A DNA stretch of 64,000 nt, taken from contig CAYYTA010000104.1 of the NCBI GenBank assembly GCA_964474575.1, positions 1,869-65,868 of the forward strand, written 5' to 3'. A program made the translations under genes and the position numbers. The DNA is from an uncultured Caulobacteraceae bacterium. GTDB taxonomy: Bacteria > Pseudomonadota > Alphaproteobacteria > Caulobacterales > Caulobacteraceae. Position 1 is the first letter of the stretch. Every line of letters begins with the position of its first letter. The notes below the pieces were generated by a model that saw nothing but the letters and a program-made list of their open reading frames with translations, was not told the origin of the DNA and made no database searches. Positions 6,933 through 27,952 of this stretch are shown here, one piece after another.

Positions 6933-8585
6933 TTAATATTCGATCGCGTGCAGGTCGCGGCCCCTGGTTTCCTTCATGAAGACCAGGGCGACAAGCACGG
7001 CAAGGATGCCGGTGATCACCGGGTACCACAGGCCGAAATAGATGTCGCCGGTCGCCGCCACCATGGCGAAGGACAAGGCCGGCTGGATGCCGCCGAACCA
7101 GCCGGTGCCGATGTTGTAGGGGATGGAAAGCGCCGTATAGCGCACGCGGGTCGGGAACATTTCGACCAGGGCCGAGGCCATGGGGCCATAAAGCGCGGTG
7201 CAGGCTATGGCCAGCACGCATAGAACAGCGAACATCGGCCACAGTTGCGCCTTCGCCGGATCGGCCTTGTCGGGATAGCCGGCGGCCTTCAACGCTGCCT
7301 TGACGTCGCCGGTCGTCTTGGCGGTCAGCGCTTTCAGTCCGGCCTTGTCGAGGCCTTGGGCCGAGCCGACGGCGATCTGCTGGCCGCCGACGGCGATGGT
7401 GGCCGGCGAGCCGGCGGGGGCGGGCTTTTCGACATAGGGCACGCCGATATTGGTGACCACGCTGCGCGCCAGGTCGCAGGCCGAGCTATAGGTGGCGGTG
7501 CCGAACAGGTTGAACTGAAAGGTGCACTGCGCCGGATCGGCGACGACGGCGACGGGTGAGGCCCTGGACGCCGCTTCGAGGTCCGGATTGCCGTATTTGA
7601 CGAGCATGTGATAGCCGGGGAACAGGGTGGCGCAGGCCAGCACGATGCCGGCCAGCATGACCGGCTTGCGGCCGATCATGTCCGACAGGCGGGCAAAGGT
7701 GATGTAGAAGAAGGCCGAGACGATGGTCATGCCGATGACCAGCAGGTGGGTCTGGTCGTCGCTGAGCCTGACCAGCTTGGTCAGGAACACCTGGGTGTAG
7801 AAGAAGCAGGTATACCAGATCACGCCCTGGGCGGTCATGAAGCTGAACAGGGCGATCAGCATGGTCTTCAGGTTGTTCCAGTTGCTGAACACCTCGCCGA
7901 GCGGCGATTTCGACACCTTGCCGGCGGCTTCCAGCGCCTTGAAGGCCGGGCTTTCGGCGGTGCGGGCGCGGACATAGACGGTGACGATGAGCAGGCCCGC
8001 CGACACCCAGAACGGGATGCGCCAGCCCCAGGCGGCAAACGCCGCCTCCCCCAGCTTCTGTTCGGTGACGATGACGACGAGCAAGGCGGCGATCAGGCCG
8101 AAGGCGGCCGAGGTCTGGATCCAGCCGGTATAGCCGCCGCGCTTGTCGGCGGGGGCGTGTTCGGCGACATAGATCGCCGCGCCGCCATATTCACCGCCGA
8201 GCGCAAAGCCCTGGATGACGCGCAAGGCGACCAGCAGCAAGGGCGCGGCATTGCCAATCTGGGCATAGGTCGGCAGGCAGCCGATGGCGATGGTGGCGAC
8301 GCCCATGACCAGGATGGTCCAGAGGAACGTGCCCTTGCGCCCGGCCTTGTCGCCGATATGGCCGAAGACCAGCGCGCCGATCGGACGCGCGATCAGGCCG
8401 ACAGCGAAAGTCGACAAGGTCAGTATGGTGCCGAGCGTGCCGGAGACGCCGGCGAAGAAGGTCTTGGTGATGATGGCGGTCAGGGTGCCGAAGATGAAGA
8501 AGTCGTACCATTCGAAGGTAGTGCCGGCGGCCGAGGCCGCCACGATGGTCTTCAGGCCCTTCGCCGGCTTGCTGTCTTCGGCCAT
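6933..8585 (-). CDS. MFS transporter, metabolite:H+ symporter (MHS/ProP-KgtP-like) with a large inserted soluble loop
   Basis: N-terminal signature GTTFEWYDFFIFG and multiple TM helices. An insert of about 120 aa with no hydrophobic helix (GNPDLEAASR...DKADPAKAQ) lies between late TM helices. Confidence 0.85.
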   Translation of the reverse strand: MAEDSKPAKGLKTIVAASAAGTTFEWYDFFIFGTLTAIITKTFFAGVSGTLGTILTLSTFAVGLIARPIGALVFGHIGDKAGRKGTFLWTILVMGVATIAIGCLPTYAQIGNAAPLLLVALRVIQGFALGGEYGGAAIYVAEHAPADKRGGYTGWIQTSAAFGLIAALLVVIVTEQKLGEAAFAAWGWRIPFWVSAGLLIVTVYVRARTAESPAFKALEAAGKVSKSPLGEVFSNWNNLKTMLIALFSFMTAQGVIWYTCFFYTQVFLTKLVRLSDDQTHLLVIGMTIVSAFFYITFARLSDMIGRKPVMLAGIVLACATLFPGYHMLVKYGNPDLEAASRASPVAVVADPAQCTFQFNLFGTATYSSACDLARSVVTNIGVPYVEKPAPAGSPATIAVGGQQIAVGSAQGLDKAGLKALTAKTTGDVKAALKAAGYPDKADPAKAQLWPMFAVLCVLAIACTALYGPMASALVEMFPTRVRYTALSIPYNIGTGWFGGIQPALSFAMVAATGDIYFGLWYPVITGILAVLVALVFMKETRGRDLHAIEY

Positions 8586-8729
8586 GTCTTGATCCCCTGT
8601 TCGCCCGCCGTTTCCCGGCGTTTAAGCCTGATGGTGTGACGCAAAGCGCCGTCAATGACAAGGCCCCCGCTGGTCAGCACCTTATTTTGCGGTTAAGGTG
8701 GCGTTAACACATAAGTCCAGGGGGTCGCG

Positions 8730-8948
8730 ATGAGCAGCAATGAGGGTCTGAGTTCCTATGCGCGGGTCAGCCGCGTCCGTCCGCTGCACCTGCTGATCAC
8801 GGTGGTCGAGGGGCTTCTGGGGCTGCTGGGTGTTGTCGTGCTGATCCTGGTCCTGCGTTACGGCTCGTTCGAGAAGGCCGGCCTGTGTCTTGACCAGTCG
8901 ATCGCCGGCGCCGTTTCCTACATCACCAAGCTGATTCATCACGCTTAG
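8730..8948 (+). CDS. small hypothetical membrane protein (72 aa)
   Basis: ATG is preceded by AGGGGG at a suitable spacing. One hydrophobic helix (LLITVVEGLLGLLGVVVLILVL), and the third codon position is GC-rich. Confidence 0.4.
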   Translation: MSSNEGLSSYARVSRVRPLHLLITVVEGLLGLLGVVVLILVLRYGSFEKAGLCLDQSIAGAVSYITKLIHHA

Positions 8949-9859
8949 GCCGCGTTCGACTGGGCGATATAGGCGTCGAGCAGGGTCGTCACCCAGTCCA
9001 TGAAGGCGCGCACCCGGCGCGCCGGATTGCGCCTTTGCGGATAGACCAGCGCCACCGGCATCGGCTCGGCGGTCAGGTGCGGCAGGACCTCGACCAGGGC
9101 CCCGGCGCGGACGTGGTCGAGCAGGCCGATGCGCGGCGACTGGATGATGCCCAGGCCCGCCACCACCGCGCTGTGATAGGACAGGGTGTTGTCGACACAG
9201 ACCTGGCCCGGCATGCGGTAGCAACGGTAAGCCTGGCCGTCGAAATATTCGAAGCCGTCGGGCTTGTTGCCCAACTGGCTGACATAGTGGACCAGGCGGT
9301 GGTGGTCGAGATCCTGGAGGGTTTCGGGCGTGCCGAAGCGCTGGATATAGGCCGGGCTGGCGATATTGGCCATGTGCAGAACGCCGAGCGGCCGGGCGAT
9401 CAGGCCGGAATCGGCCCTGTGGCCTACACGAATGACGCAGTCGAAGCCTTCCGCCACCACGTCCACCCGCCGGTCGGTGCATGACAATTCGATATCGAGG
9501 CCCGGATGCCGGGCCAGGAACTGCGGCAGGCGCGGGATGATCAGGTTGCGCGCCATGTGCACCGGCATGTCGATGCGCAGGCGGCCGTCCAGGCCCGCCG
9601 GCGCGGTCTGGAACATGGTGTCGATGTCCTCGACATCGGCCAGGATATCCTTGGCGCGCTCGTAAAACGCCTGGCCGTCGTGGGTCAGCTGCACCCGCCG
9701 GGTGGTGCGGTAAAGCAGCTGGGTTTTCAGATGGTTTTCGAGCTGCTGCACGGCGGTCGACACGGTCGATTTCGGCAGGCCCAGGCTTTCGGCGGCGGCG
9801 GTGAAGCTTTGCAGCTCGGCCACCCGGATGAAGGCCTGCATGGCGTCGAAGCGGTTCAT
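8945..9859 (-). CDS. LysR-family transcriptional regulator
   Basis: N-terminal wHTH MNRFDAMQAFIRVAELQSFTAAAESLGLPKSTVSTAVQQLE. 304 aa, divergent from the SDR gene. Confidence 0.9.
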   Translation of the reverse strand: MNRFDAMQAFIRVAELQSFTAAAESLGLPKSTVSTAVQQLENHLKTQLLYRTTRRVQLTHDGQAFYERAKDILADVEDIDTMFQTAPAGLDGRLRIDMPVHMARNLIIPRLPQFLARHPGLDIELSCTDRRVDVVAEGFDCVIRVGHRADSGLIARPLGVLHMANIASPAYIQRFGTPETLQDLDHHRLVHYVSQLGNKPDGFEYFDGQAYRCYRMPGQVCVDNTLSYHSAVVAGLGIIQSPRIGLLDHVRAGALVEVLPHLTAEPMPVALVYPQRRNPARRVRAFMDWVTTLLDAYIAQSNAA

Positions 9860-9977
9860 GTGCGCCTCATTGTTCCAATTTGACGAATAGTCTTATCGCA
9901 TATCGCATATTTATCGCCATGGACAGATAAACTATCTCCGGGTTCGCGAACAATCTTTCACGAAAGGTCCTTCCCCA

Positions 9978-10733
9978 ATGACCCGGATCGCTCTCATCAC
10001 CGGCGGCAGCCGCGGCCTTGGCCGCAGCATGGCGCAACACCTGGCGGCGCGCGGCGTCTATGTGCTGTTCACCTACCATTCGCGCAAGGACGAGGCGGAC
10101 AGCCTCGCCGCCGAGCTTGAGGCCATGGGCCGCAAGGCAGTGGCCCTGCAACTGGACGCCGGCGATTCCAAAAGCTTCGATGCCTTCGCGGCCCAGGTCC
10201 GGGCTGCGCTGCGCGCGGCGTGGGGGCGCGGCGACTTCGACTTCCTGGTCAACAATGCCGGTACGGCGCTCTATGCGCCCTTCGCCGAGACGACCGAGGA
10301 CCAGCTGGACACTGTCTTCAACATCCATTTCAAGGGCGTGTACCTGCTGACCCAGAAGCTTTTGCCGCTGATCCGGGATGGCGGCGCCATCGTCAACGTG
10401 TCGTCGGGCCTGGCACGGTTCAGCTATCCGGGCTCGTCGGCCTACGGCGCGATGAAGGGTGCGATCGAGGTGCTGACGCGCTATCTGGCGGTCGAACTGG
10501 GCCCGCGCCGTATCCGCGTCAATACGCTGGCGCCGGGGGCGATCGCGACGGACTTCGGCGGCGGGCGGGTGCGCGACAATGCCGAGCTCAACGCCACCAT
10601 CGCCGGGCGCACGCCGCTGGGCCGGGTCGGCCTGCCGGACGATATCGGCGGGGCGGTGTCGCTGCTGCTGTCGAACGAGGCGGGCTGGATCAACGGCCAG
10701 AGAATCGAGGCGTCGGGCGGGATTCATCTGTGA
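9978..10733 (+). CDS. short-chain dehydrogenase/reductase (SDR)
   Basis: Motifs TGGSRGLG (TGxxxGxG), NNAG and YGAMK (YxxxK). 251 aa. Confidence 0.9.
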   Translation: MTRIALITGGSRGLGRSMAQHLAARGVYVLFTYHSRKDEADSLAAELEAMGRKAVALQLDAGDSKSFDAFAAQVRAALRAAWGRGDFDFLVNNAGTALYAPFAETTEDQLDTVFNIHFKGVYLLTQKLLPLIRDGGAIVNVSSGLARFSYPGSSAYGAMKGAIEVLTRYLAVELGPRRIRVNTLAPGAIATDFGGGRVRDNAELNATIAGRTPLGRVGLPDDIGGAVSLLLSNEAGWINGQRIEASGGIHL

Positions 10734-19419: not shown

Positions 19420-20109
19420 TCAATGGCCGGCGTCGTAGATGACATAGCTGGCGGGCGTGCGGGGTGCGGCATCGTCGTCGAACGTCGGGTCGACTTCGAA
19501 GCGCATGAGGTCGAACTCGCCGTCGACAAAGCGCCAATGGCCGGCATCCCAGGCATCGCCAATGCCGCGCCACAAGGCATGGGTGGAAATCGTCAAGGTT
19601 TTCGGATCAAACTTGGCATTGACCAGCGTAACGTCGCTGCCGAAACCGTCAACCTTGGGAGCACTACCGCCCTCATTGGAGACATCGCGCAAGTTGGGCC
19701 GAGCAAAGCTCAACAACTGGAAATCTCCACCGCTGTCGGGATCGCGCAGCAGGAAGACATATTTGATGTTGTAGGCGCCCATTGCGCAGAACATCTGGTA
19801 CAACTCGACCTTGTGCGGCGGCGTGTCCGCCGCGTCATAGCTTGGACGGTAGGAAAACGTGTAGACGAAATGGCTGACGCCTTCCTGGCCGGTGTCATTG
19901 ACCGGAATGTCAGTGCGGCCGTTCATGTCGCAGTCGGGCAGCGCTGCCTTGACGAAGGCCTCCGCCGCCTTCACGGCGTCCCCGGGTTTGGCGGACGCAG
20001 CGGTAGCCGATGAAGAGCCAGCCGGCGCCTGTGGCGCCTTGGGGGGCGTGCAGCCAGCCAAAACGGTTGCCGTCAGCACCAGAGCCGCTGCCGCTACTAT
20101 ACCCCGCAT
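19420..20109 (-). CDS. putative lipoprotein of unknown function
   Basis: Signal peptide with lipobox LAGC (MRGIVAAAALVLTATVLAGCTPP) and a GGGAGGA Shine-Dalgarno. The gene lies 30 nt downstream of the aminotransferase. Confidence 0.75.
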   Translation of the reverse strand: MRGIVAAAALVLTATVLAGCTPPKAPQAPAGSSSATAASAKPGDAVKAAEAFVKAALPDCDMNGRTDIPVNDTGQEGVSHFVYTFSYRPSYDAADTPPHKVELYQMFCAMGAYNIKYVFLLRDPDSGGDFQLLSFARPNLRDVSNEGGSAPKVDGFGSDVTLVNAKFDPKTLTISTHALWRGIGDAWDAGHWRFVDGEFDLMRFEVDPTFDDDAAPRTPASYVIYDAGH

Positions 20110-20139: not shown

Positions 20140-21366
20140 CTACGCCACCTCGGCGGCGTCCTCCAGCCCTGGATCAGGGGGGGTGTTGCGCCCGGCCGGC
20201 ATGAGGAGCTTCTTGATATTGCGCGCCGCCTGACGGATGCGGTGTTCGTTCTCGACCAGGCCGATGCGGACATAGCCTTCGCCGTATTCGCCGAAACCGA
20301 GGCCCGGCGCGACGGCGACGTGCGCTTCCTCGATCAGCAGCTTGGCGAACTCGATCGAACCCATGTCGCGGAACTTCTCCGGGATCTGCGCCCAGGCGAA
20401 CATCGAAGCCGGCGGCGCCGGAATGTCCCATCCGGCGCGCTTCATCGCGGAAACCAGCACGTCGCGGCGTGATTTATAGGTGGCGCGGATCTCGTCGACA
20501 TTGTCCTGCGGCCCGTTCAGCGCCGCGGCGGCGGCGACCTGGATCGGCGCGAAGCCGCCGTAATCGAGGTAGGATTTCACCCGCGCCAGCGCCGCGCAGA
20601 TGTCCGCATTGCCGACCACCATGCCGATGCGCCAGCCGGCCATGGCGTAGGTCTTGGACAAGGAATTGATTTCGACGCTGCGTTCGCGCGCGCCATCGAC
20701 CTGAAGGATCGACGGCGGCGGATTGTCGTCGAAATAGATTTCCGAATAGGCGATGTCGCTGAGCACGATCAGGTCGTGTTTCTGCGCGATCTTGATGACC
20801 TCCTTGTAGAAGTCGAGATCGACCCATTGCGCCGTCGGATTCGACGGATAGGAGACAATCATCACCGACGGCGCCGGCACCGAGTGTTTGACCGCCTTGT
20901 CGATGCCCGAAAGGTACTGCTCCGGCGACAGGGCAGGCACGTGGCGGATGACGCCGCCAGCCATCAGGAAACCGAAAGCGTGGATCGGATAGGCCGGGTT
21001 GGGGCAGATGACCGTGTCGCCCGGCGCGGTGATCGCCATGGCGAGGTTGGCGAACCCCTCCTTGGAGCCGAGCGTCGCCACGACTTCGGTATCGGGGTTG
21101 AGTTTCACGCCGTAGCGGCGGTCGTAATAGCCGGCCATGGCCTTGCGCAGGCCCTGGACGCCCTTCGAAACGCTGTAACCATGCGTCTTCGGCTTGCGCA
21201 CCGTCTCGACCAGCTTGTCGACGATATGCGAAGCCGTCGCCATGTCCGGATTGCCCATGCCGAAGTCGATGACATCAATACCTTCAGCGCGCAGCTTTGC
21301 CTTGACCTTGTTGACCTCTTCGAAGACGTAGGGCGGCAGGCGGCGGATACGGTAAAAGTCGCGCAT
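20140..21366 (-). CDS. PLP-dependent aminotransferase, class I/II (AlaC/DapC-like)
   Basis: Motifs RRLPPYVFEEVNK...IDFGMGNPD and SLSKTYAMAGWRIG (PLP lysine). 408 aa. Confidence 0.9.
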   Translation of the reverse strand: MRDFYRIRRLPPYVFEEVNKVKAKLRAEGIDVIDFGMGNPDMATASHIVDKLVETVRKPKTHGYSVSKGVQGLRKAMAGYYDRRYGVKLNPDTEVVATLGSKEGFANLAMAITAPGDTVICPNPAYPIHAFGFLMAGGVIRHVPALSPEQYLSGIDKAVKHSVPAPSVMIVSYPSNPTAQWVDLDFYKEVIKIAQKHDLIVLSDIAYSEIYFDDNPPPSILQVDGARERSVEINSLSKTYAMAGWRIGMVVGNADICAALARVKSYLDYGGFAPIQVAAAAALNGPQDNVDEIRATYKSRRDVLVSAMKRAGWDIPAPPASMFAWAQIPEKFRDMGSIEFAKLLIEEAHVAVAPGLGFGEYGEGYVRIGLVENEHRIRQAARNIKKLLMPAGRNTPPDPGLEDAAEVA

Positions 21367-21518
21367 GGCGGTGGAAAACCCGGAACGGAAGCTACTGGAG
21401 CCTTCCTATGGCCGATCCGTTTTGGTTTGTCATCCCGTCAGCGCCAAATTCTTCGAATAATTTTGCGCAAAGTTCGGAAAATTTCTTATGAAGGTGCGAT
21501 GCCGATCGCAGGAATGTG

Positions 21519-21785
21519 TCAATCTATCGGCCGCTTCGGCAACTGCCTCTGCAAGGCGGCTATATCCTGCAGCCGGGCTTGCAGCATGGCTTGAGCCTGT
21601 GGACGCAGCTCCGGCTCCAGATCGGGCAGCAGCGCCGCCGAATCGGGCCGTTCGAGAAAAGTCGTCAATTCGCGCAAGGCTGAAGCCGGGTCCAGATTCT
21701 GGAAATGACGTGCCGCGTATTGAAACATCACCAGGACCTCGAGAACCCAAAGGCGGGCTTGCGTGTTTTGTTCTCCTACGTCCAT
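21519..21785 (-). CDS. small predicted helical protein (88 aa), 8 nt downstream of the M48-like gene
   Basis: MDVGEQNTQARLWVLEVLVMFQYAARHF... . The Shine-Dalgarno is weak, so translational coupling is possible. No family was recognised. Confidence 0.4.
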   Translation of the reverse strand: MDVGEQNTQARLWVLEVLVMFQYAARHFQNLDPASALRELTTFLERPDSAALLPDLEPELRPQAQAMLQARLQDIAALQRQLPKRPID

Positions 21786-21793
21786 CTGACAGC

Positions 21794-22789
21794 TCAATAG
21801 GAAAAGGCCTGACTTATGGAGTAAATCATCCCGACAACGATGCCGATTGCAACGAGATAGACAATAAAACCAAGCAGGCATGTGCCGAAAACGACGCCAA
21901 CAGCCGCAAAAACGGAACCTGTGCGATACCGCTCGCTGTTCAGGTCATCCAGGTCGGAGGGCAGTCCGGGGTTGGCTGCCGCGAATTGCCGGAACTTTTC
22001 CGGATAGGCGCGCCGGGCAAAGGAAATCAGGTCGACATAGCGCGCCGTGGCATGCGGAAAGCTCAGCCCCAACCGCGCGAAAAAGGCAAAGACCGAGCCC
22101 TTTATGCGCCGGTGCTGCTCGGCGATGCCGACAGGATTGACCGAGTAGCCGAGTTGACGTCCGACGACGAGTTTTTGCATGGCGGAAACAGCCGTTGTCA
22201 CGTCGCCTTCGATCGCGGCCAGGCCCAGCCGGTCGCCGGTAAATACGGATGCTCTTTCAAAAGGCAAAAGGAAAAAGTTGAGAATGCCGGTTTTCTGCGC
22301 CTGACGGATCAGGAAACCCCACAGGCTATATTCCTGTTGCACCCGCCAATAACCGATAAACCGCCCGACGATCCACGCGACCTCCTCATCCGTAACGCCA
22401 TTCTCGAGCATTTCCGAGGTCAGAAAAATCGCGCGACGAAGAAAGAACCGCGACAGAAAGGCATTGAAGGAATCCATTTCAAAGACGAAGACCGTGATCG
22501 GTTTAGTCACATTCATGGCGGCCTTTACGTCGAGCACGATCTTGTTGATCCGCGGATAATTGATGTCCGAAACCATAACCGTATTCGCCATTAGATAGAC
22601 GTAGGATGTTTCGCACGCCATCCAGAAAAGCAGTATCAGAAACGGGAAGATCAGCATGAACGAACCGCCGATCGCGATAATGAGCATGAACGGCAAAAGC
22701 ATGAAGGCGCAAATCAACGCCAGTGCGAATCGTAAATGCTGCCGCGGGTGGATACACCTCTGAAACTCGGCGTGTGACAATGTTTGCAT
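21794..22789 (-). CDS. M48-like integral membrane protein lacking the HExxH zinc site (pseudo-peptidase)
   Basis: Two N-terminal TM helices and a C-terminal TM. The M48-type core FNAF...(L)TSEML...DEEVAWIVGRFIGYW has G-R-F-I-G where HExxH is expected, followed by ...FERASVFTGDRLGLAA. GC is visibly lower than in the flanks. Confidence 0.65.
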   Translation of the reverse strand: MQTLSHAEFQRCIHPRQHLRFALALICAFMLLPFMLIIAIGGSFMLIFPFLILLFWMACETSYVYLMANTVMVSDINYPRINKIVLDVKAAMNVTKPITVFVFEMDSFNAFLSRFFLRRAIFLTSEMLENGVTDEEVAWIVGRFIGYWRVQQEYSLWGFLIRQAQKTGILNFFLLPFERASVFTGDRLGLAAIEGDVTTAVSAMQKLVVGRQLGYSVNPVGIAEQHRRIKGSVFAFFARLGLSFPHATARYVDLISFARRAYPEKFRQFAAANPGLPSDLDDLNSERYRTGSVFAAVGVVFGTCLLGFIVYLVAIGIVVGMIYSISQAFSY

Positions 22790-22820
22790 GCCTTCCCCCC
22801 GGCGTTTGCAATGGAAAACA

Positions 22821-24167
22821 ATGTTATGTTGTGTTAATGCGAAAAAATTGATCGCGCAAGACGCGAATTTATGGTGGGCTCAGGTGACGGACGTATTTGT
22901 CAGTTACAAGCGCGAGGATCGACCACGCGCGGAACATGTGGTCCGCGCCTTGACCGACCAGGGCTTTTCGGTCTGGTGGGACGAGAATATTACGCCCCGC
23001 GAAGCATGGGACGCCACAATCGAGAGGCAGATCAGTGGCGCGACCAGCGTCCTGGTATTGTGGTCACAGCTATCGGTGGCTTCCGACTGGGTCCGCACGG
23101 AGGCCCATTTTGCTCATGACCGGAACAAGCTGATACCTGTGAAGGTCGAAACCTGCGCTTTGCCGCTGGCTTTTGCCCTCGTCCAGACCGTCGACCTGAC
23201 GGACTGGGGCGGTCAGCAAGATCACCGTCAATGGCGAAAGCTCCTCAGCTGGATCAGCGACCTGACAGCATCCAGGACGAACACGGACGCCATCATAGCC
23301 TCGGGCGCTACGAACAAATACCGAGAGATTGTCGGTCATCTGCCATCAGGAGAGGCGATCAGCGACGGCGCCCTGATCAATGCGGCGACACCGGCGGGAA
23401 CCCTCTTCAAGGATGGGGCCGATGGCTGTGTCATGCGCTGTCTGCCAAGAGGTGAGTTCATGCTTGGCGCGCCCCCGACAGATATTGATCGTACGCCGGC
23501 GGAAAGTCCCCAGAAACGCATACAGATCACACAGCCGCTTGCCATGGGCATCTATCCCGTGCTGACGCGGGAGTTCGGCATATTCATCCAATCGCCTCCG
23601 CAAGCGCCGTCGCCGAACAAGGTCCTCTCCTGGTTGGACAAGCCTGTGACGCCCGAAGCGCCACGGGCGCCGGCAACGCCGCGGACTCCCGTCACTCACG
23701 TTTCCTTCAACGATGCCGTAAATTTTGCACTGGCCCTGTCGGAGGCGACGGGTTATGCCTATCGCCTTCCTTCCGAGACAGAATGGGAATTTGCCTGCCG
23801 GTCAATGGCCAGCACCCGCTATAGTCATGGCAATGTCATCGACGCCAGCCATGCCGTCTTCCATTGTGAGTCCACGCCTCTTCGCTCTGGTCCGGCTGAA
23901 GCGGGCCAATACGCGCATAATCGCTTCGGCTTATTCGACATGCACGGCAATGTTCGCGAATGGACGATGGACGGATGGCACGATTCGCATGAGTTTACGC
24001 CTGCGGACGGCAGTCCCGCCCCCCAAGGGCAGTCCTCGATGCGAGTCGTGAGAGGAGGCGCGTGGTGTGATCCGGCGCCGATGTTGAGATCATCGTGGCG
24101 CGGCCGAGCCACCTATTCCACGCGCGATGCCGCCATCGGCTTTCGTATCGTTAGAGAGCTGTCCTGA
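22821..24167 (+). CDS. TIR domain - FGE-sulfatase (SUMF1) domain fusion protein
   Basis: TIR_2-like DVFVSYKREDR..GFSVWWDE..SVLVLWS..SDWVRTEAHFA, with the conserved Glu present. C-terminal FGE/SUMF1 signature HVSFNDAVNFA..YRLPSETEWEFACR..NRFGLFDMHGNVREW..RVVRGGAW..GFRIVREL. Start is uncertain: ATG 22788, ATG 22821 or GTG 22884 after GGTGGG. Confidence 0.85.
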   Translation: MLCCVNAKKLIAQDANLWWAQVTDVFVSYKREDRPRAEHVVRALTDQGFSVWWDENITPREAWDATIERQISGATSVLVLWSQLSVASDWVRTEAHFAHDRNKLIPVKVETCALPLAFALVQTVDLTDWGGQQDHRQWRKLLSWISDLTASRTNTDAIIASGATNKYREIVGHLPSGEAISDGALINAATPAGTLFKDGADGCVMRCLPRGEFMLGAPPTDIDRTPAESPQKRIQITQPLAMGIYPVLTREFGIFIQSPPQAPSPNKVLSWLDKPVTPEAPRAPATPRTPVTHVSFNDAVNFALALSEATGYAYRLPSETEWEFACRSMASTRYSHGNVIDASHAVFHCESTPLRSGPAEAGQYAHNRFGLFDMHGNVREWTMDGWHDSHEFTPADGSPAPQGQSSMRVVRGGAWCDPAPMLRSSWRGRATYSTRDAAIGFRIVRELS

Positions 24168-24176
24168 CGGCCGGTG

Positions 24177-24518
24177 CTACAATTCTTCCTCGACAAACGC
24201 CCTGAGCCGCTCCAGCGCTCCGTCCCACTGCCGCGAGATGGCGTCGAGCGCCGCGCGCGCCGTCTCCAGCCTTTGCCGCTTCAGGGCCCACAGGCTCAAC
24301 CGGCCGCGCCGGGCGCAGGTGACCAGGCCGGCCTTTTCCAGCACATAGAGGTGCTTGGTCACGGCCTGGCGCGACATGTCGGCGACATCCGCCAGATCGA
24401 CGATCGCGGCCGGCCCCTCTGCCCCCAGGCGGTTGACGATGGCCAGCCGCGTCGGATCGCCCAATGCTGAGAAAACATGGGCGGCGAACACGACCGCTTC
24501 CTCACCAACCCCTGGCAA
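24177..24518 (-). CDS. ArsR/SmtB-family transcriptional regulator
   Basis: Motif ALGDPTRLAIVNRL....VDLADVADMSRQAVTKHLYVLEKAGLV. Overlaps the upstream SRPBCC gene by a few codons. Confidence 0.85.
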   Translation of the reverse strand: MPGVGEEAVVFAAHVFSALGDPTRLAIVNRLGAEGPAAIVDLADVADMSRQAVTKHLYVLEKAGLVTCARRGRLSLWALKRQRLETARAALDAISRQWDGALERLRAFVEEEL

Positions 24519-24996
24519 GATAGGCCTCGATCAGCTTGCACTGCCACGTCCAGCCGCCGTCATTGGCGGCGAAGGCCGCGGCGCGGCGTTCCAGCGGCAG
24601 GTGGCGGAAACCGGATTCGATGATGGTCAGTTGCGTGCCGCCGGTGACGGCCTCGAGCTCGAAGCGGACCAGGGTCATAAACTCGCCGGAATAGTCCCTG
24701 TCCTTGTCGATGCCGTAAGGGTGCCAGCGGAACGAAAAGACGTGCGGCGGGTCGATTTCCTCGATCTTGAGCAGGACCGGCGTGCCGCGATGCGGTTCCT
24801 GCATGGCGGCGACTTCGGCATTGACCTCGGTCGGCACGATGGCGCCGGTGATGGCCTGGCCGGCGATGAAAGGCCCCTTGAGGAACATGCCGAACCATTT
24901 GCCGAACTGGTCCGAATTGGCGATGGCCTGCCACACTCGCGACAGGTCGGCGGCGAGGAAGATCGTCTTGACGAGGCTGTCGGGGATTTCGTCCAT
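24502..24996 (-). CDS. SRPBCC/AHSA1 (activator of Hsp90 ATPase homologue 1-like) domain protein
   Basis: Starts MDEIPDSLVKTIFLAADLSRVWQAIANSDQFGKWFG after an AGGAG Shine-Dalgarno. Commonly paired with ArsR regulators. Confidence 0.8.
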   Translation of the reverse strand: MDEIPDSLVKTIFLAADLSRVWQAIANSDQFGKWFGMFLKGPFIAGQAITGAIVPTEVNAEVAAMQEPHRGTPVLLKIEEIDPPHVFSFRWHPYGIDKDRDYSGEFMTLVRFELEAVTGGTQLTIIESGFRHLPLERRAAAFAANDGGWTWQCKLIEAYLARGW

Positions 24997-25095
24997 AGGC
25001 AACTCCTGGGTTGCGCTTTCCTTAGCCCAATGCCGGATAATATGCAACCGTGAAGTTGCCTTTTCCACCGCAAGGCTTCGTGATAGGTCTTGCCT

Positions 25096-26016
25096 ATGCG
25101 CAAATGGGGGCGGATCGTCTGGGGGATTGTCGCGGCGGTGGTGATTGCCTGCGCCGTCGATGGCTTCTGGTTCGAGCCGCGCAGCCTTACCCTGACGCAG
25201 CTCGACATCGCCACGCCGTCATGGCCCGCCACCACCGCGCCCCTGCGGGTGGTGCTCATTTCCGACACCCACGCCGACGGCTGGTTCATGACGCCGGCGC
25301 GCATCCGTTCGATCGCCGCCGAGGTCAATGCCATGCAGCCCGACGCGGTGATCCTGGCCGGCGACTATATCGGCGGCAATGTGCTCAGGGGACGCAAGGA
25401 ATTCGGCGCGCGGCCGATGCGGTCGCCGGCGGAGATCGCGCTCGACGAGGACGGCCTGCGCGCGCTCGGCGATTTTCATGCGAAATACGGCGTCTTCGCC
25501 ATCATGGGTAATCACGACTGCTGGTGGGATTGCGATACGGTGCGGCGAATCCTGAACGAGGACGGCATCCATTTCCTCGAAAACCAGGCGGCGGCGATTT
25601 CACGCCCCGACGGCGATGTGTGGATATTGGGCGTCGAGGACGGCCAGACGCAACACCCCGACTTTCCAGCGACTTTTGCCCAGGCGCCGGTCGGCGCCGC
25701 GACGATCACGGTGACGCACAATCCAGGCCTGTTCGACTGGCCCAGCAACCATGTGCCGGTGATGCTGGCCGGCCATACCCACGGCGGCCAGGTGCGCATC
25801 CCGTTCCTCGGCGCGCCGGTGACCGTGTCGCGCCATACCAACGATACTTACAAGGGCTGGACGATCATCGGCGGCCGGGTGCTGATCGTGACGCGGGGCG
25901 TGGGGGAAAGCGGCATACCGGTGCGCTTCGACTGCCCGCCGCAGATCATGCTGCTGACCTTCCACAATGGCCCGGCGGCGAAGGTGGTGGCGACGCCGGA
26001 TAAAAGCCTGCCTTAA
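25096..26016 (+). CDS. membrane-anchored metallophosphoesterase (calcineurin-like)
   Basis: Motifs VLISDTHAD, LAGDY, GNHD and AGHTHGGQ, with an N-terminal TM. A TTG at 25090 is an alternative start. Confidence 0.9.
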   Translation: MRKWGRIVWGIVAAVVIACAVDGFWFEPRSLTLTQLDIATPSWPATTAPLRVVLISDTHADGWFMTPARIRSIAAEVNAMQPDAVILAGDYIGGNVLRGRKEFGARPMRSPAEIALDEDGLRALGDFHAKYGVFAIMGNHDCWWDCDTVRRILNEDGIHFLENQAAAISRPDGDVWILGVEDGQTQHPDFPATFAQAPVGAATITVTHNPGLFDWPSNHVPVMLAGHTHGGQVRIPFLGAPVTVSRHTNDTYKGWTIIGGRVLIVTRGVGESGIPVRFDCPPQIMLLTFHNGPAAKVVATPDKSLP

Positions 26017-26046
26017 TTGGCGGGAAAGGATCAATTTCGCATATAG

Positions 26047-26304: not shown

Positions 26305-26598
26305 TCAATCGGTGGAATAATTTGCCTGGACCGTACAGCGCCAGCCCGCCGAAGCCGAGCCCTGCGAAGACGGATCGGGCGGGGTGCACTGACATGGAGA
26401 AAACGACACAACGTGTGCGTTTGATTTTCCGAAGCGCATGCCCGCGAGCGCAGCTTCAGCCCTGGCGTCGTCCTGCGCCCTGAGACAGGCGGCGCCCTGG
26501 TCTTCTCCGATACCCGTGCCGCTCACCACCCCGGTCTCGGCCACCGCCGGAAAGGCGATCATCAGCAAGGCGCAGACGGCAAAATGGGCTTTTCGCAT
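26305..26598 (-). CDS. small secreted hypothetical protein (97 aa)
   Basis: Signal peptide MRKAHFAVCALLMIAFPAVA. No family was recognised. Confidence 0.5.
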   Translation of the reverse strand: MRKAHFAVCALLMIAFPAVAETGVVSGTGIGEDQGAACLRAQDDARAEAALAGMRFGKSNAHVVSFSPCQCTPPDPSSQGSASAGWRCTVQANYSTD

Positions 26599-26693
26599 GA
26601 GTTGTTCCTCGTGAATCGGCGGGGTTGACAATCAAATATTACGTAGGCACCTATATATATCAGCGTTTTTCGAGATGACAACGGGAGGGAAGA

Positions 26694-27056
26694 GTGTCGC
26701 GTATGGTACGGTTCAAAACCTGGGTATGGGCGCCTTTGGCCGCGCTCGCCGGAGGTCTGGTCATGGCCGCCGCAGCCATTACGCCGCAAAGCGCGGCATT
26801 CGCCCAGTCCTCCCCGGCCACCTGTGTGTCGTCATACCAGTCGGACGGCACCATCTATATCCATAACGGCTGCGAACAGGACGTCTACTGGATGGCCTGC
26901 GTGCGTACCCAGGGCTGGACGGTCACCCATTCATATGACGGGCCCGGCATCCTGGCGGGGACGGATTACGACTTCTCGCCGGCGAACGACCAGACGCCGT
27001 TTTCCTACTCGCTCCTCACCGCATATCAGCCGACCAATTTCCAGTGCGGACAGTGA
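26694..27056 (+). CDS. small secreted Cys-containing hypothetical protein (120 aa)
   Basis: Signal peptide ...LVMAAAAITPQSAAFA, with several Cys in the mature part. No family was recognised. Confidence 0.55.
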   Translation: MSRMVRFKTWVWAPLAALAGGLVMAAAAITPQSAAFAQSSPATCVSSYQSDGTIYIHNGCEQDVYWMACVRTQGWTVTHSYDGPGILAGTDYDFSPANDQTPFSYSLLTAYQPTNFQCGQ

Positions 27057-27057
27057 T

Positions 27058-27552
27058 ATGAACCGAACCTCCGCTTTATGTCTGCCGGCTCTGGTTTTGG
27101 CGGCATGTCTCGCCGTGCCCGCCGCCGCGCAGGACCAGACAGGACAGCAGACCATCCCCAATGCCCAGGCCTTTCTCTGGACCGTGTTGAATTCAAATGC
27201 CGGCGTCACAATGGAATACACTTACACGGCGCCAAACGGTCGAGTTGACGATTGGAGGGATGCAGACATCGACTCCGTAAGCGGCAGCGACTGCCATACC
27301 ACCTTTACCGCGCGCGTTCCCCCCGATATACGCTCGAAAAACCTCTACGTAACCCGCGACGTCGACTGGCGCGGCGTCAACACCGTGAGCAGGGACTGGC
27401 GATCAATAACCGTGACCGGAGGCGTTACCGACACCATTGGGGCGTCGACCGATCTCATCCTCTATATCCCGGATGGGCTAAGGGACCGCGTTTACAATGC
27501 ATTCGACTTCCTGCGTAAGTCCTGCAACACCTCGCAACAGTACGGCTTCTGA
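27058..27552 (+). CDS. secreted hypothetical protein (164 aa)
   Basis: The ATG at 27058 lies 1 nt after the preceding stop. Signal peptide MNRTSALCLPALVLAACLAVPAAA. No family was recognised. Confidence 0.55.
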   Translation: MNRTSALCLPALVLAACLAVPAAAQDQTGQQTIPNAQAFLWTVLNSNAGVTMEYTYTAPNGRVDDWRDADIDSVSGSDCHTTFTARVPPDIRSKNLYVTRDVDWRGVNTVSRDWRSITVTGGVTDTIGASTDLILYIPDGLRDRVYNAFDFLRKSCNTSQQYGF

Positions 27553-27555
27553 CCG

Positions 27556-27909
27556 AATACGCCCGCTTTCCGCCGGGCGCCGGCGGGGGCCGCGACGATC
27601 ACGGTGACGCACAATCCAGGCCTGTTCGACTGGACGTCCAACCATGTGCCGGTCATGCTGGCCGGGCACACCCACGGCGGCCAGGTGCGCATCCCGTTCC
27701 TGGGCGCGCCGGTGACCGTGTCGCGTCATACCAACGACACCTACAAGGGCTGGACGATTATCGACGGGCGAGTGTTGATTGTCTCACGTGGTGTCGGCTC
27801 CAGCGGCATCCCGGTCCGCTTCGACTGCCCGCCGCAAGTGATGTTGCTGACCTTCCACAATGGCCCGGCGGCCAAGGTGGTGGCGACGCCGGATAAAAGC
27901 TTGCCCTAA
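27556..27909 (+). pseudogene. relic 3' fragment of a metallophosphoesterase gene (diverged copy of 25662-26016)
   Basis: Aligns codon for codon with the C-terminal ~115 aa of the intact gene, including AGHTHGGQVRIPFLG. The N-terminal catalytic half is missing. Homology continues ~25 nt past the stop codon. Confidence 0.85.
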
Positions 27910-27952
27910 TTGATGGGAAAGCATCAATCTCGCATGCTGGGGCCGAATGATG

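Follow-up and report, generated by a model that had tools for sequence, protein, structure and literature searches.

Two divergently transcribed genes on a compositionally foreign islet form an obligate two-gene system in their clade. The islet lies in a 64,000-nucleotide stretch of DNA from an uncultured Caulobacteraceae bacterium (contig CAYYTA010000104.1; the whole stretch is called the window below). The first gene encodes a protein, TIR-FGE, in which an N-terminal TIR domain is fused to a domain of the formylglycine-generating enzyme (FGE) fold, and the second encodes a polytopic membrane protein that resembles M48 peptidases and has lost their HExxH motif. A rare third gene for an 88-aa protein adjoins the second. 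We tentatively interpret the ensemble as an acquired two-gene module, with the rare third gene, that would act as a membrane-coupled TIR sensor-effector conflict module of BlaR1-like topology. The three open reading frames (ORFs) lie where the initial annotation, made from the DNA letters and their translations, had placed them, and the islet is laid out as follows.

21519..21785, minus strand: 88-aa ORF, starting 8 nt past the stop of the M48-like gene
21794..22789, minus strand: M48-like gene, 331 aa, divergent from the TIR-FGE gene
22790..22883, no strand: AT-rich divergent control region between the two core genes, 94 bp, 47% GC
22884..23288, plus strand: TIR domain, residues 1-135 in the 427-aa numbering, with the TIR_2 match
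23289..24167, plus strand: linker helix, family-specific beta-hairpin region, PvdO-like FGE-sulfatase domain (residues ~171-427) and stop
21481..24176, no strand: approximate extent of the compositionally foreign islet, from sister-genome homology and third-codon-position G+C content (GC3)

Residue numbers given for TIR-FGE refer to the 427-aa form, and Pfam residue ranges to the 459-aa ORF.

An obligate divergent gene pair

The linkage of the two core genes was assessed from both sides. A metagenome scan anchored on the M48-like family recovered 80 loci, and the TIR-FGE gene was divergent to it in all 74 that had at least about 340 bp of upstream sequence; the six others end at a contig edge. 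With TIR-FGE as the anchor, the M48-like gene was divergent in 6/6 independent loci (the window, a Caulobacteraceae metagenome-assembled genome (MAG), Sphingomonas sp. AR_OL41, an ENA contig, a Janthinobacterium lividum MAG and an Acidobacteriaceae MAG). The two genes therefore co-occur at every assessable locus. The initial annotation had considered a sensor-effector system of a single gene plausible, with the membrane gene and the small ORF as possible parts of it. The single-gene reading does not survive the constant pairing in this clade; the membrane gene is upheld as part of the module, and the 88-aa ORF is not part of its core.

Pairwise identities of the two proteins correlate closely (r = 0.90, Mantel 0/2000, over 40 distinct loci), consistent with inheritance of both genes as a unit, apparently without partner shuffling. 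Flanks differ between genomes, and the pair sits at a different locus in every genome. Other flanking families recur in at most 9 of 49 loci, and there is no third conserved neighbour.

The TIR-FGE ORF was found as first annotated, but its start codon was not upheld. Homologues open with M[AT]DVFVSYK, and the GTG at 22884 is the exact point where tblastn alignments set in at more than 60 loci; because of this agreement we set the start there, so that the gene likely spans 22884..24167 and encodes 427 aa, rather than beginning at 22821 or 22788. With this start the divergent spacer is 94 bp long. Spacers are similarly short across the 64 distinct loci measured: 60 fall within 72-113 bp, and the four remaining ones are 131, 144, 145 and 280 bp long. 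The window spacer holds the palindrome TCGCGCAAGACGCGA at 22852-22866, and the sigma-70 consensus is unmatched within it. Across spacers no universal regulatory motif was found, conservation being specific to sub-clades. A promoter-like TTGTCA-N17-GATAAT arrangement was seen by eye in the spacers of three high-scoring loci (L097, L100 and L105).

The family is widespread. A protein search with TIR-FGE returned 1,442 matches at E <= 1e-5, and the best 120 of these all combine the two domains in 404-458 aa and share 49-56% identity with the window protein. By source name, carriers include Caulobacteraceae, Methylovirgula, Rhizomicrobium, Azospirillaceae, Sphingomonas, Acidobacteriaceae and Janthinobacterium. 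The family is abundant in soil Alphaproteobacteria, Betaproteobacteria and Acidobacteria, with at least several hundred distinct sequences. TIR-FGE proteins are currently annotated as ‘SUMF1/EgtB/PvdO family nonheme iron enzyme’ or ‘formylglycine-generating enzyme’, and their partners as ‘hypothetical / TonB family / M48 metalloprotease’.

Domain content of the encoded proteins

Pfam TIR_2 (PF13676) matches residues 36-153 of the ORF at E 2.9e-25 (89.5 bits against a cut-off of 28) and is covered end to end (profile positions 1-122 of 122). The motifs DVFVSYKREDR, GFSVWWDE and SDWVRTEAHFA are all found in this part. The Glu of WVRTEAH is E73 (codon 23100-23102). It lines up with the Glu in the WTEYE of AbTir (7uxr), the WPQKE of PdTIR (3h16), the WCLDE of RPP1 (5teb) and the WCQYE of Toll-like receptors, and it is invariant across 108 family sequences. 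Both the TIR_2-like assignment and the retention of a Glu at the catalytic position, as first read from the translation, are borne out. We take this position to be equivalent to E642 of SARM1 and E208 of AbTir. With 67% mean pairwise identity, the TIR domain is better conserved than any other part of the protein, and it is predicted to cleave NAD+ with E73 as the catalytic Glu.

Matches of the TIR domain to known defence profiles are marginal. The ThsB_TIR profile reaches 19.1 bits against a threshold of 21.2 (E 2e-3). PADLOC sees the TIR part alone, as SAVED_TIR, PDC-S66 and ThsB fragments, with ThsB at E 2e-3 to 2e-2. A ThcB4 profile gives 26 bits against 220. A Foldseek search with the whole TIR-FGE model is dominated by FGE-fold matches and therefore offers no independent structural check of the TIR domain. 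The AlphaFold2 (AF2) model of the whole chain scores a pLDDT of 92.3 and a pTM of 0.90, which suggests that the TIR and FGE domains are held in a fixed arrangement. The protein has no signal peptide and opens straight at TIR strand A, so we place it in the cytosol.

The C-terminal half matches Pfam FGE-sulfatase over residues 219-456 of the 459-aa ORF at E 1.6e-44, in agreement with the FGE-sulfatase/SUMF1 signature first recognised there. Its nearest relative is PvdO, both by profile search against the PDB (5hha, E 2.5e-55) and by Foldseek (E 3.4e-25, TM-score 0.85 normalised to the target); FGE structures score E ~1e-15 in Foldseek. The NCBIfam model of PvdO (dihydropyoverdine dehydrogenase) gives 147 bits and does not reach its equivalog cut-off of 500.

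A conserved copper-binding Cys pair is a hallmark of true FGEs. In this family C305 is the sole invariant Cys of the FGE domain. The family consensus past RGGGW reads x-D-x-x-x-M-L-R-S-A-A-R, and the window's own Cys in W-C-D is not conserved. The copper-binding pair (human C336/C341, with the human FGE register inferred from the motif) is likewise not conserved. Because C305 alone is invariant, the domain lacks a conserved Cys pair and, judged by these residues, cannot act as a formylglycine-generating enzyme. Most likely it serves as a binding or adaptor module. A precedent is Tsi3, a type VI secretion system (T6SS) immunity protein, whose PvdO-like FGE fold works purely by protein binding (bioRxiv 10.1101/2021.05.21.445229). 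FGE or FGE-sulfatase (FGS) domains have also been proposed or observed as sensors fused to TIR and other effectors (PMC7159879, PMC8195603, PMC13581612).

That the FGE domain is itself catalytic, as a PvdO-like oxidoreductase or metallo-enzyme acting on a small molecule or peptide with the TIR domain as scaffold, and that the two genes form a metabolic pair, we consider very improbable. The closeness to PvdO with its 147-bit match, the nonheme iron enzyme name and two invariant residues (N346 and E359 of the motif NxFGLYDMHGNVxEW, which presumably match one calcium site of human FGE) would all fit such an enzyme. However, the PvdO score is far below its cut-off, PvdO is periplasmic while TIR-FGE is cytosolic, the conserved Cys pair is missing, and Pfam finds no DinB domain, as would go with an EgtB-type site. 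Nor do neighbouring genes supply a pathway. No pvd, sulfatase or EgtD-type neighbour occurs in the loci examined: pvd genes are absent from the full-flank loci and the window genes, and sulfatases from the gene tables of the five full-flank loci and from the 25 most frequent of 142 Pfam families in 115 flanking proteins. In addition, the TIR domain, with its catalytic Glu kept, is the part under strongest conservation.

The initial annotation had likened this domain to the ligand-sensing FGS modules of comparative-genomic work, and that likeness did not hold. The domain is conserved (60% mean pairwise identity) and PvdO-like, and no reverse transcriptase (RT) or NTPase lies nearby, either in the gene tables of the full-flank loci or among the 25 commonest Pfam families of the window genes and of the 115 flanking proteins. 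As a target of a diversity-generating retroelement (DGR) it was ruled out for the window clade: its C-terminus is conserved rather than hypervariable, and the 3′ end of its coding region has no long repeat within 21300-24300.

The membrane partner gives a weak match to Pfam Peptidase_M48 (E 8.4e-6; 26.2 bits, the cut-off being 20.3), in which no individual stretch passes by itself, and the M48 profile matches 25 of 27 family members at E <= 0.01. In place of HExxH the family has an invariant G142-R143-F144-x-G146, so the label ‘degenerate’ given at first inspection is correct, as is the description as a polytopic M48-like membrane protein. The conserved core of about 285 aa has 65% mean pairwise identity and contains a GDR motif and many invariant Arg, Asp, Asn, Gln and Lys residues, among them eight Arg (R20, R118, R143, R162, R179, R187, R211 and R250). 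An AF2 model (pLDDT 85, pTM 0.82) retrieves only ZMPSTE24, BlaR1, BepA or Ste24 at Foldseek ranks 1-9, with weak E values of 0.1-2. Hydropathy and AF2 place two transmembrane (TM) helices within residues 17-68 and one within 290-330, and three Arg/Lys residues precede the first. These features indicate, as a model, a protein with its N-terminus inside, whose pseudo-protease domain lies in the cytosol between a pair of TM helices and a third one, and whose C-terminus is outside. The protein is likely an inner-membrane M48/M56-like pseudo-peptidase with a gluzincin-like domain whose zinc site has been lost.

Beyond the third helix the partner is modular. Its tail carries TonB_C, MORN, Sel1, TPR or DUF3617 domains, beta-rich domains or Pro-rich low-complexity sequence, or is missing altogether. 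One example of a swapped periplasmic tail is at L173:6251-7891. A recurrent unannotated beta-rich tail of ~150 aa ending in FLxSFxI was seen by eye, in rows that include a protein from a Terracidiphilus MAG (P0243).

The 88-aa ORF, described at the outset as a tightly coupled small helical ORF, is a sound gene call. It starts 8 nt past the M48-like stop, is conserved elsewhere, and a separate gene caller predicts it independently on a Logan contig from the same strain. Its product is predicted to be all-helical, with a conserved core R[LI]xxLExLVxFxFAxQHxQxxDP and a C-terminal LP[KR]RLVD, and it has no Pfam, NCBIfam or PADLOC match. A word-indexed homologue search returned the query alone, and an exhaustive phmmer search found about seven small relatives among 1.84 billion representative proteins. 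Homologues (35-60% identity) are confined to the module, at seven distinct loci, where they usually follow TIR-FGE; in the window the gene follows the M48-like gene instead. The gene is real, but it is a rare, lineage-restricted accessory.

Islet origin and candidate functions

The lower GC noted in the initial annotation is confirmed by GC3, which is 0.65, 0.67 and 0.68 in the three islet genes and 0.82-0.86 in the flanks (aminotransferase 0.84, ArsR 0.83, SRPBCC 0.82, Metallophos 0.84). The islet genes rank among the lowest in a list of 53 window genes, a ranking made without the 88-aa ORF, whose GC3 was computed separately. The immediate neighbours are as follows.

20140..21366, minus strand: LL-diaminopimelate/alanine aminotransferase, a core gene flanking the islet
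24177..25068, minus strand: ArsR/SRPBCC (AHSA1) pair flanking the islet
25090..26016: Metallophos gene

Comparison of the aminotransferase-to-ArsR interval with sister genomes showed the islet to be missing from two Asticcacaulis genomes. The aminotransferase belongs to a 90%-identity cluster of Asticcacaulis proteins. In Asticcacaulis sp. YBE204 it lies ~200 bp from the Metallophos gene with no islet between them, and in a second sister genome (GCA_964253955) the upstream neighbour is different and the islet is again absent. Homology by blastn with the sister locus L088, in the aminotransferase promoter region, stops near window position 21480, and the left edge of the islet lies between ~21480 and the stop of the small ORF at 21519. 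On the right, the stop codons of TIR-FGE and ArsR lie only 9 bp apart. The borders show no att-like direct repeats, tRNA, integrase or Rfam element. Composition and absence from the sisters are consistent with a horizontally acquired accessory insertion.

A pair so tightly linked on a foreign islet might also be a toxin-immunity or addiction pair, in which TIR-FGE would be a toxin that depletes NAD+ and the pseudo-protease, alone or together with the 88-aa protein, its antidote, either stabilising the islet or serving competition between bacteria. Co-divergence and the obligate pairing would suit this, the islet appears mobile, an FGE-like fold occurs in a T6SS effector-immunity pair (Tsi3), and the 88-aa protein resembles a modulator. 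Yet the genes are divergent and not co-transcribed, and a polytopic membrane protein of 330-550 aa with periplasmic domains would be an odd antitoxin. TIR-FGE also has no secretion signal, markers of T6SS, the type VII secretion system or contact-dependent inhibition are absent from the protein and its vicinity, and the module is not on plasmids. We regard this explanation as improbable.

Under our preferred interpretation, the M48-like protein would be receptor and regulator in the membrane. Its periplasmic module, or the TM region in short forms, would perceive an envelope or infection cue, while the cytosolic dead-protease domain would hold or position TIR-FGE by way of the latter's FGE domain or conserved linker. 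The cue would alter this interaction, the TIR domains would self-associate, and NAD+ would be cleaved and either depleted or turned into a signal. Consumption of NAD+ could then arrest growth or abort the infection. Of the functions considered, a role in conflict or abortive infection is the single most likely, though it falls short of being probable. We favour the receptor direction because the variable C-terminal domains of the partner are of the binding type. A more specific form of the idea, in which the pair would be a bacterial ‘Toll-like receptor in two pieces’, with an extracytoplasmic ligand-binding module and a dead-protease docking platform controlling assembly and activity of the TIR NADase through an FGE adaptor, is doubtful.

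Signalling might also run the other way, with a Thoeris-like polarity. Here the FGE domain would sense, the TIR domain would make a messenger derived from ADP-ribose, and the membrane pseudo-protease would be a membrane-damaging or depolarising effector that binds the messenger in its arginine-rich former active-site domain. Type II Thoeris follows this logic, pairing a TIR sensor with a membrane effector. The existence of short partners without a periplasmic domain favours such a polarity, since these are easier to explain as effectors. The eight invariant Arg of the M48-like core, together with its D, N, Q and K residues, would suit an anionic nucleotide, FGE/FGS domains have been proposed as invader sensors, and the weak ThsB-type matches on the TIR domain point the same way. 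The TPR, Sel1, MORN and TonB_C tails of the partner, however, bind or anchor and are not toxic, and the supposed FGE sensor is strongly conserved rather than diversified. Moreover, Pfam detects no SLOG, Macro, SAVED or CARF messenger-binding domain, and the divergent gene order is unlike that of known Thoeris operons. Overall, this polarity is unlikely.

The proposal of a conflict or defence module, first made from architecture and islet context, stands as a reasonable inference, but the defence context itself is weak, and several observations weigh against our interpretation. PADLOC recognises no system at the islet, and searches of phage (50,697 records), plasmid (72,556) and viral-contig (2.9 million) collections yielded no family member. 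Housekeeping genes surround the pair in the window and at most homologous loci (in the window, alpha-2-macroglobulin, Ffh, HrcA, GrpE and GshB among others); the islet is a solitary insertion and not a defence island. Across phyla the two proteins keep 60-67% mean identity, which is more conservation than typical immune sensors show. Common descent by itself would also make neighbouring genes diverge together. The M48 fold call has low scores behind it (26 bits; Foldseek E >= 0.1). Finally, about 9% of partners, the window copy included, lack any periplasmic domain, so outside-in sensing is not the whole story.

A signalling function outside defence would accommodate several of these points. 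A pseudo-BlaR1 would then couple an envelope-stress, nutrient or cell-cell cue to NAD+ turnover or a nucleotide signal. Housekeeping flanks, high conservation over Alphaproteobacteria, Betaproteobacteria and Acidobacteria, the absence from phage, plasmid and viral-contig collections and from PADLOC, and periplasmic TonB_C, Sel1 and TPR domains typical of envelope proteins would all be expected of it. On the other hand, the module is patchy, of foreign composition and at a different locus in each genome, unlike a housekeeping pathway, and those bacterial TIR domains characterised so far that keep the catalytic Glu work in conflict or virulence. We think such a function rather unlikely.

At some other loci the pair has a conflict context. 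In five related soil or peat metagenomic loci, further membrane proteins with an N-terminal TIR domain flank the pair on both sides, forming a TIR-rich neighbourhood (L153:1447-2748 and 8014-10026; L154:1230-2723; L158:407-1633 and 7647-9260; L135:27-2748; L151:1966-3936). These are TIR-TM-periplasmic proteins, TIR-coiled-coil-TM proteins and others with C-termini that look, by eye, repeat-rich or like polytopic transporters, and their topology is Toll-like. Single mad3/mad8, PD-Lambda-2_B and AriA-like matches occur near the pair in other loci. In Sphingomonas sp. AR_OL41, a phage-like block lies 3-8 kb downstream of the pair (L084:12275-17287), with Peptidase_M78, aGPT-Pplase3/ADDT (thymidine hypermodification), thymidylate synthase, DUF433 and DUF5681 genes. 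Among the other 50 window genes, PADLOC gave a weak SduA match (Shedu DUF4263, E 2.4e-6) and Csa3-type matches (E 7e-15); the SduA match is not among the ten low-GC3 window genes that were re-scanned.

Bacteria, plants and animals have the TIR domain in common as the catalytic core of immune signalling, and the route of its activation varies between systems. Should the pair prove to be a module of defence or stress response, it would add a new class of partner, the membrane pseudo-protease, a possible envelope-to-cytosol route of TIR activation and a non-diversified use of the FGE lectin fold; the annotation of hundreds of database clusters, and of more than 1,000 if all 1,442 matches belong, would be corrected as well. 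The two-piece Toll-like receptor, if true, would represent a previously unknown outside-in route of TIR immunity and a new use of a pseudo-M48/M56 protein. A full-text literature search turned up no experimentally characterised TIR-FGE protein, as the initial annotation had supposed, and no paper mentioning an M48-like partner of TIR-FGE. Databases already show the TIR-FGE architecture, which has been remarked on in a general way; the strictly linked pseudo-protease partner is new. At only ~2.4 kb, and with a carrier in culture (Sphingomonas sp. AR_OL41), the pair can be tested directly.

Beyond the islet, the window shows further traces of rearrangement. The ArsR/SRPBCC pair was considered as part of the module and rejected, being native in composition, for which reason we treat it as resident, and unlinked to the pair elsewhere. 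It is also missing between the aminotransferase and Metallophos genes of YBE204, so this site between the two genes has undergone repeated remodelling. On the other side, a DUF1176 gene (19420-20109, minus strand; Pfam E 7e-12, GC3 0.74) lies between the aminotransferase and a conserved 75-aa ORF with a GT4 gene; it is absent from this position in both sisters and so is a further small strain-specific insertion, 1.4 kb from the islet. Further downstream, a 363-bp direct repeat (88% identity; 25680-26042 and 27573-27935) duplicates the final (3′) third of the Metallophos gene, with 26 bp more, ~1.9 kb downstream. Lower-GC small ORFs lie between the copies (26305..26631, 26694..27056 and ~27060..27552), and the products of those at 26305 and ~27060 have, by eye, hydrophobic N-termini resembling signal peptides. 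This region looks like a second small insertion with a duplicated target.

Relation to known systems

Among the closest known systems are the FGS systems linked to DGRs and NTPases, described by Kaur et al. (PMC7159879, PMC8195603), by Dore et al. (PMC10907252) and in a 2026 STAND survey (PMC13581612). In these systems, which are STAND- or MoxR-vWA-linked and often DGR-diversified, an FGE domain likewise stands C-terminal to an effector such as TIR. The window clade differs in having no NTPase, RT, template repeat or variable repeat, in its conserved FGE domain and in its dedicated membrane partner.

More distant TIR-FGE proteins (30-39% identity; from Accumulibacter, Methylococcaceae, Hyphococcus, a cyanobacterium and an archaeon) have no M48-like neighbour. 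They come from a profile scan of genome contigs, in which the matches listed are mostly FGE-only or distant ones via the generic motif PSEAEWEY. At L004:4568-10261 (Methylococcaceae MAG), a TIR-FGE protein ~32% identical to that of the window has as neighbours a reverse transcriptase, a DNA methylase and another FGE protein. At L002:6344-11781 (Accumulibacter MAG), another at ~32% adjoins a 1353-aa ParA-TIR-nSTAND1-FGE protein. These two neighbourhoods match the known DGR- and STAND-linked FGS systems.

Thoeris (ThsB TIR with ThsA; types I-IV) resembles the pair in setting a TIR protein with the catalytic Glu beside a non-TIR protein. It differs in its partner, since the window has no ThsA of SIR2, SLOG, Macro or caspase type and the M48-like protein matches M48 only; in addition, the window TIR domain has a PvdO-like FGE domain fused to it, the two genes run divergently and ThsB matches stay below threshold.

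PvdO, the best match in both sequence and structure, and Tsi3 share with the window domain an FGE fold without the copper-binding Cys pair. They are periplasmic single-domain proteins encoded in pvd or T6SS clusters, whereas the window domain is cytosolic, fused to TIR and encoded outside such clusters.

BlaR1 and MecR1 (M56), with related M48/M56 transmembrane sensor-proteases, offer a parallel for the membrane partner. They share its order of TM segments, cytosolic gluzincin-type domain, TM helix and extracytoplasmic C-terminal sensor, the M48-like family includes versions with TonB_C, and BlaR1 (8exs) is among its top structural neighbours, with weak E values of 0.1-2. In contrast to BlaR1 and MecR1, the M48-like protein has lost all zinc ligands, so proteolytic signalling is impossible in it, and its partner is a TIR enzyme. 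No BlaI/MecI-type repressor was found as a conserved third gene at the loci; the window ArsR is native and does not lie beside the pair elsewhere. Compared with the TIR NADases SARM1, AbTir and plant TIRs, TIR-FGE differs in its activating scaffold, having no ARM/SAM, coiled-coil or NLR domains, and shares the S-x-W-V-x-x-E motif with its Glu at the catalytic position.

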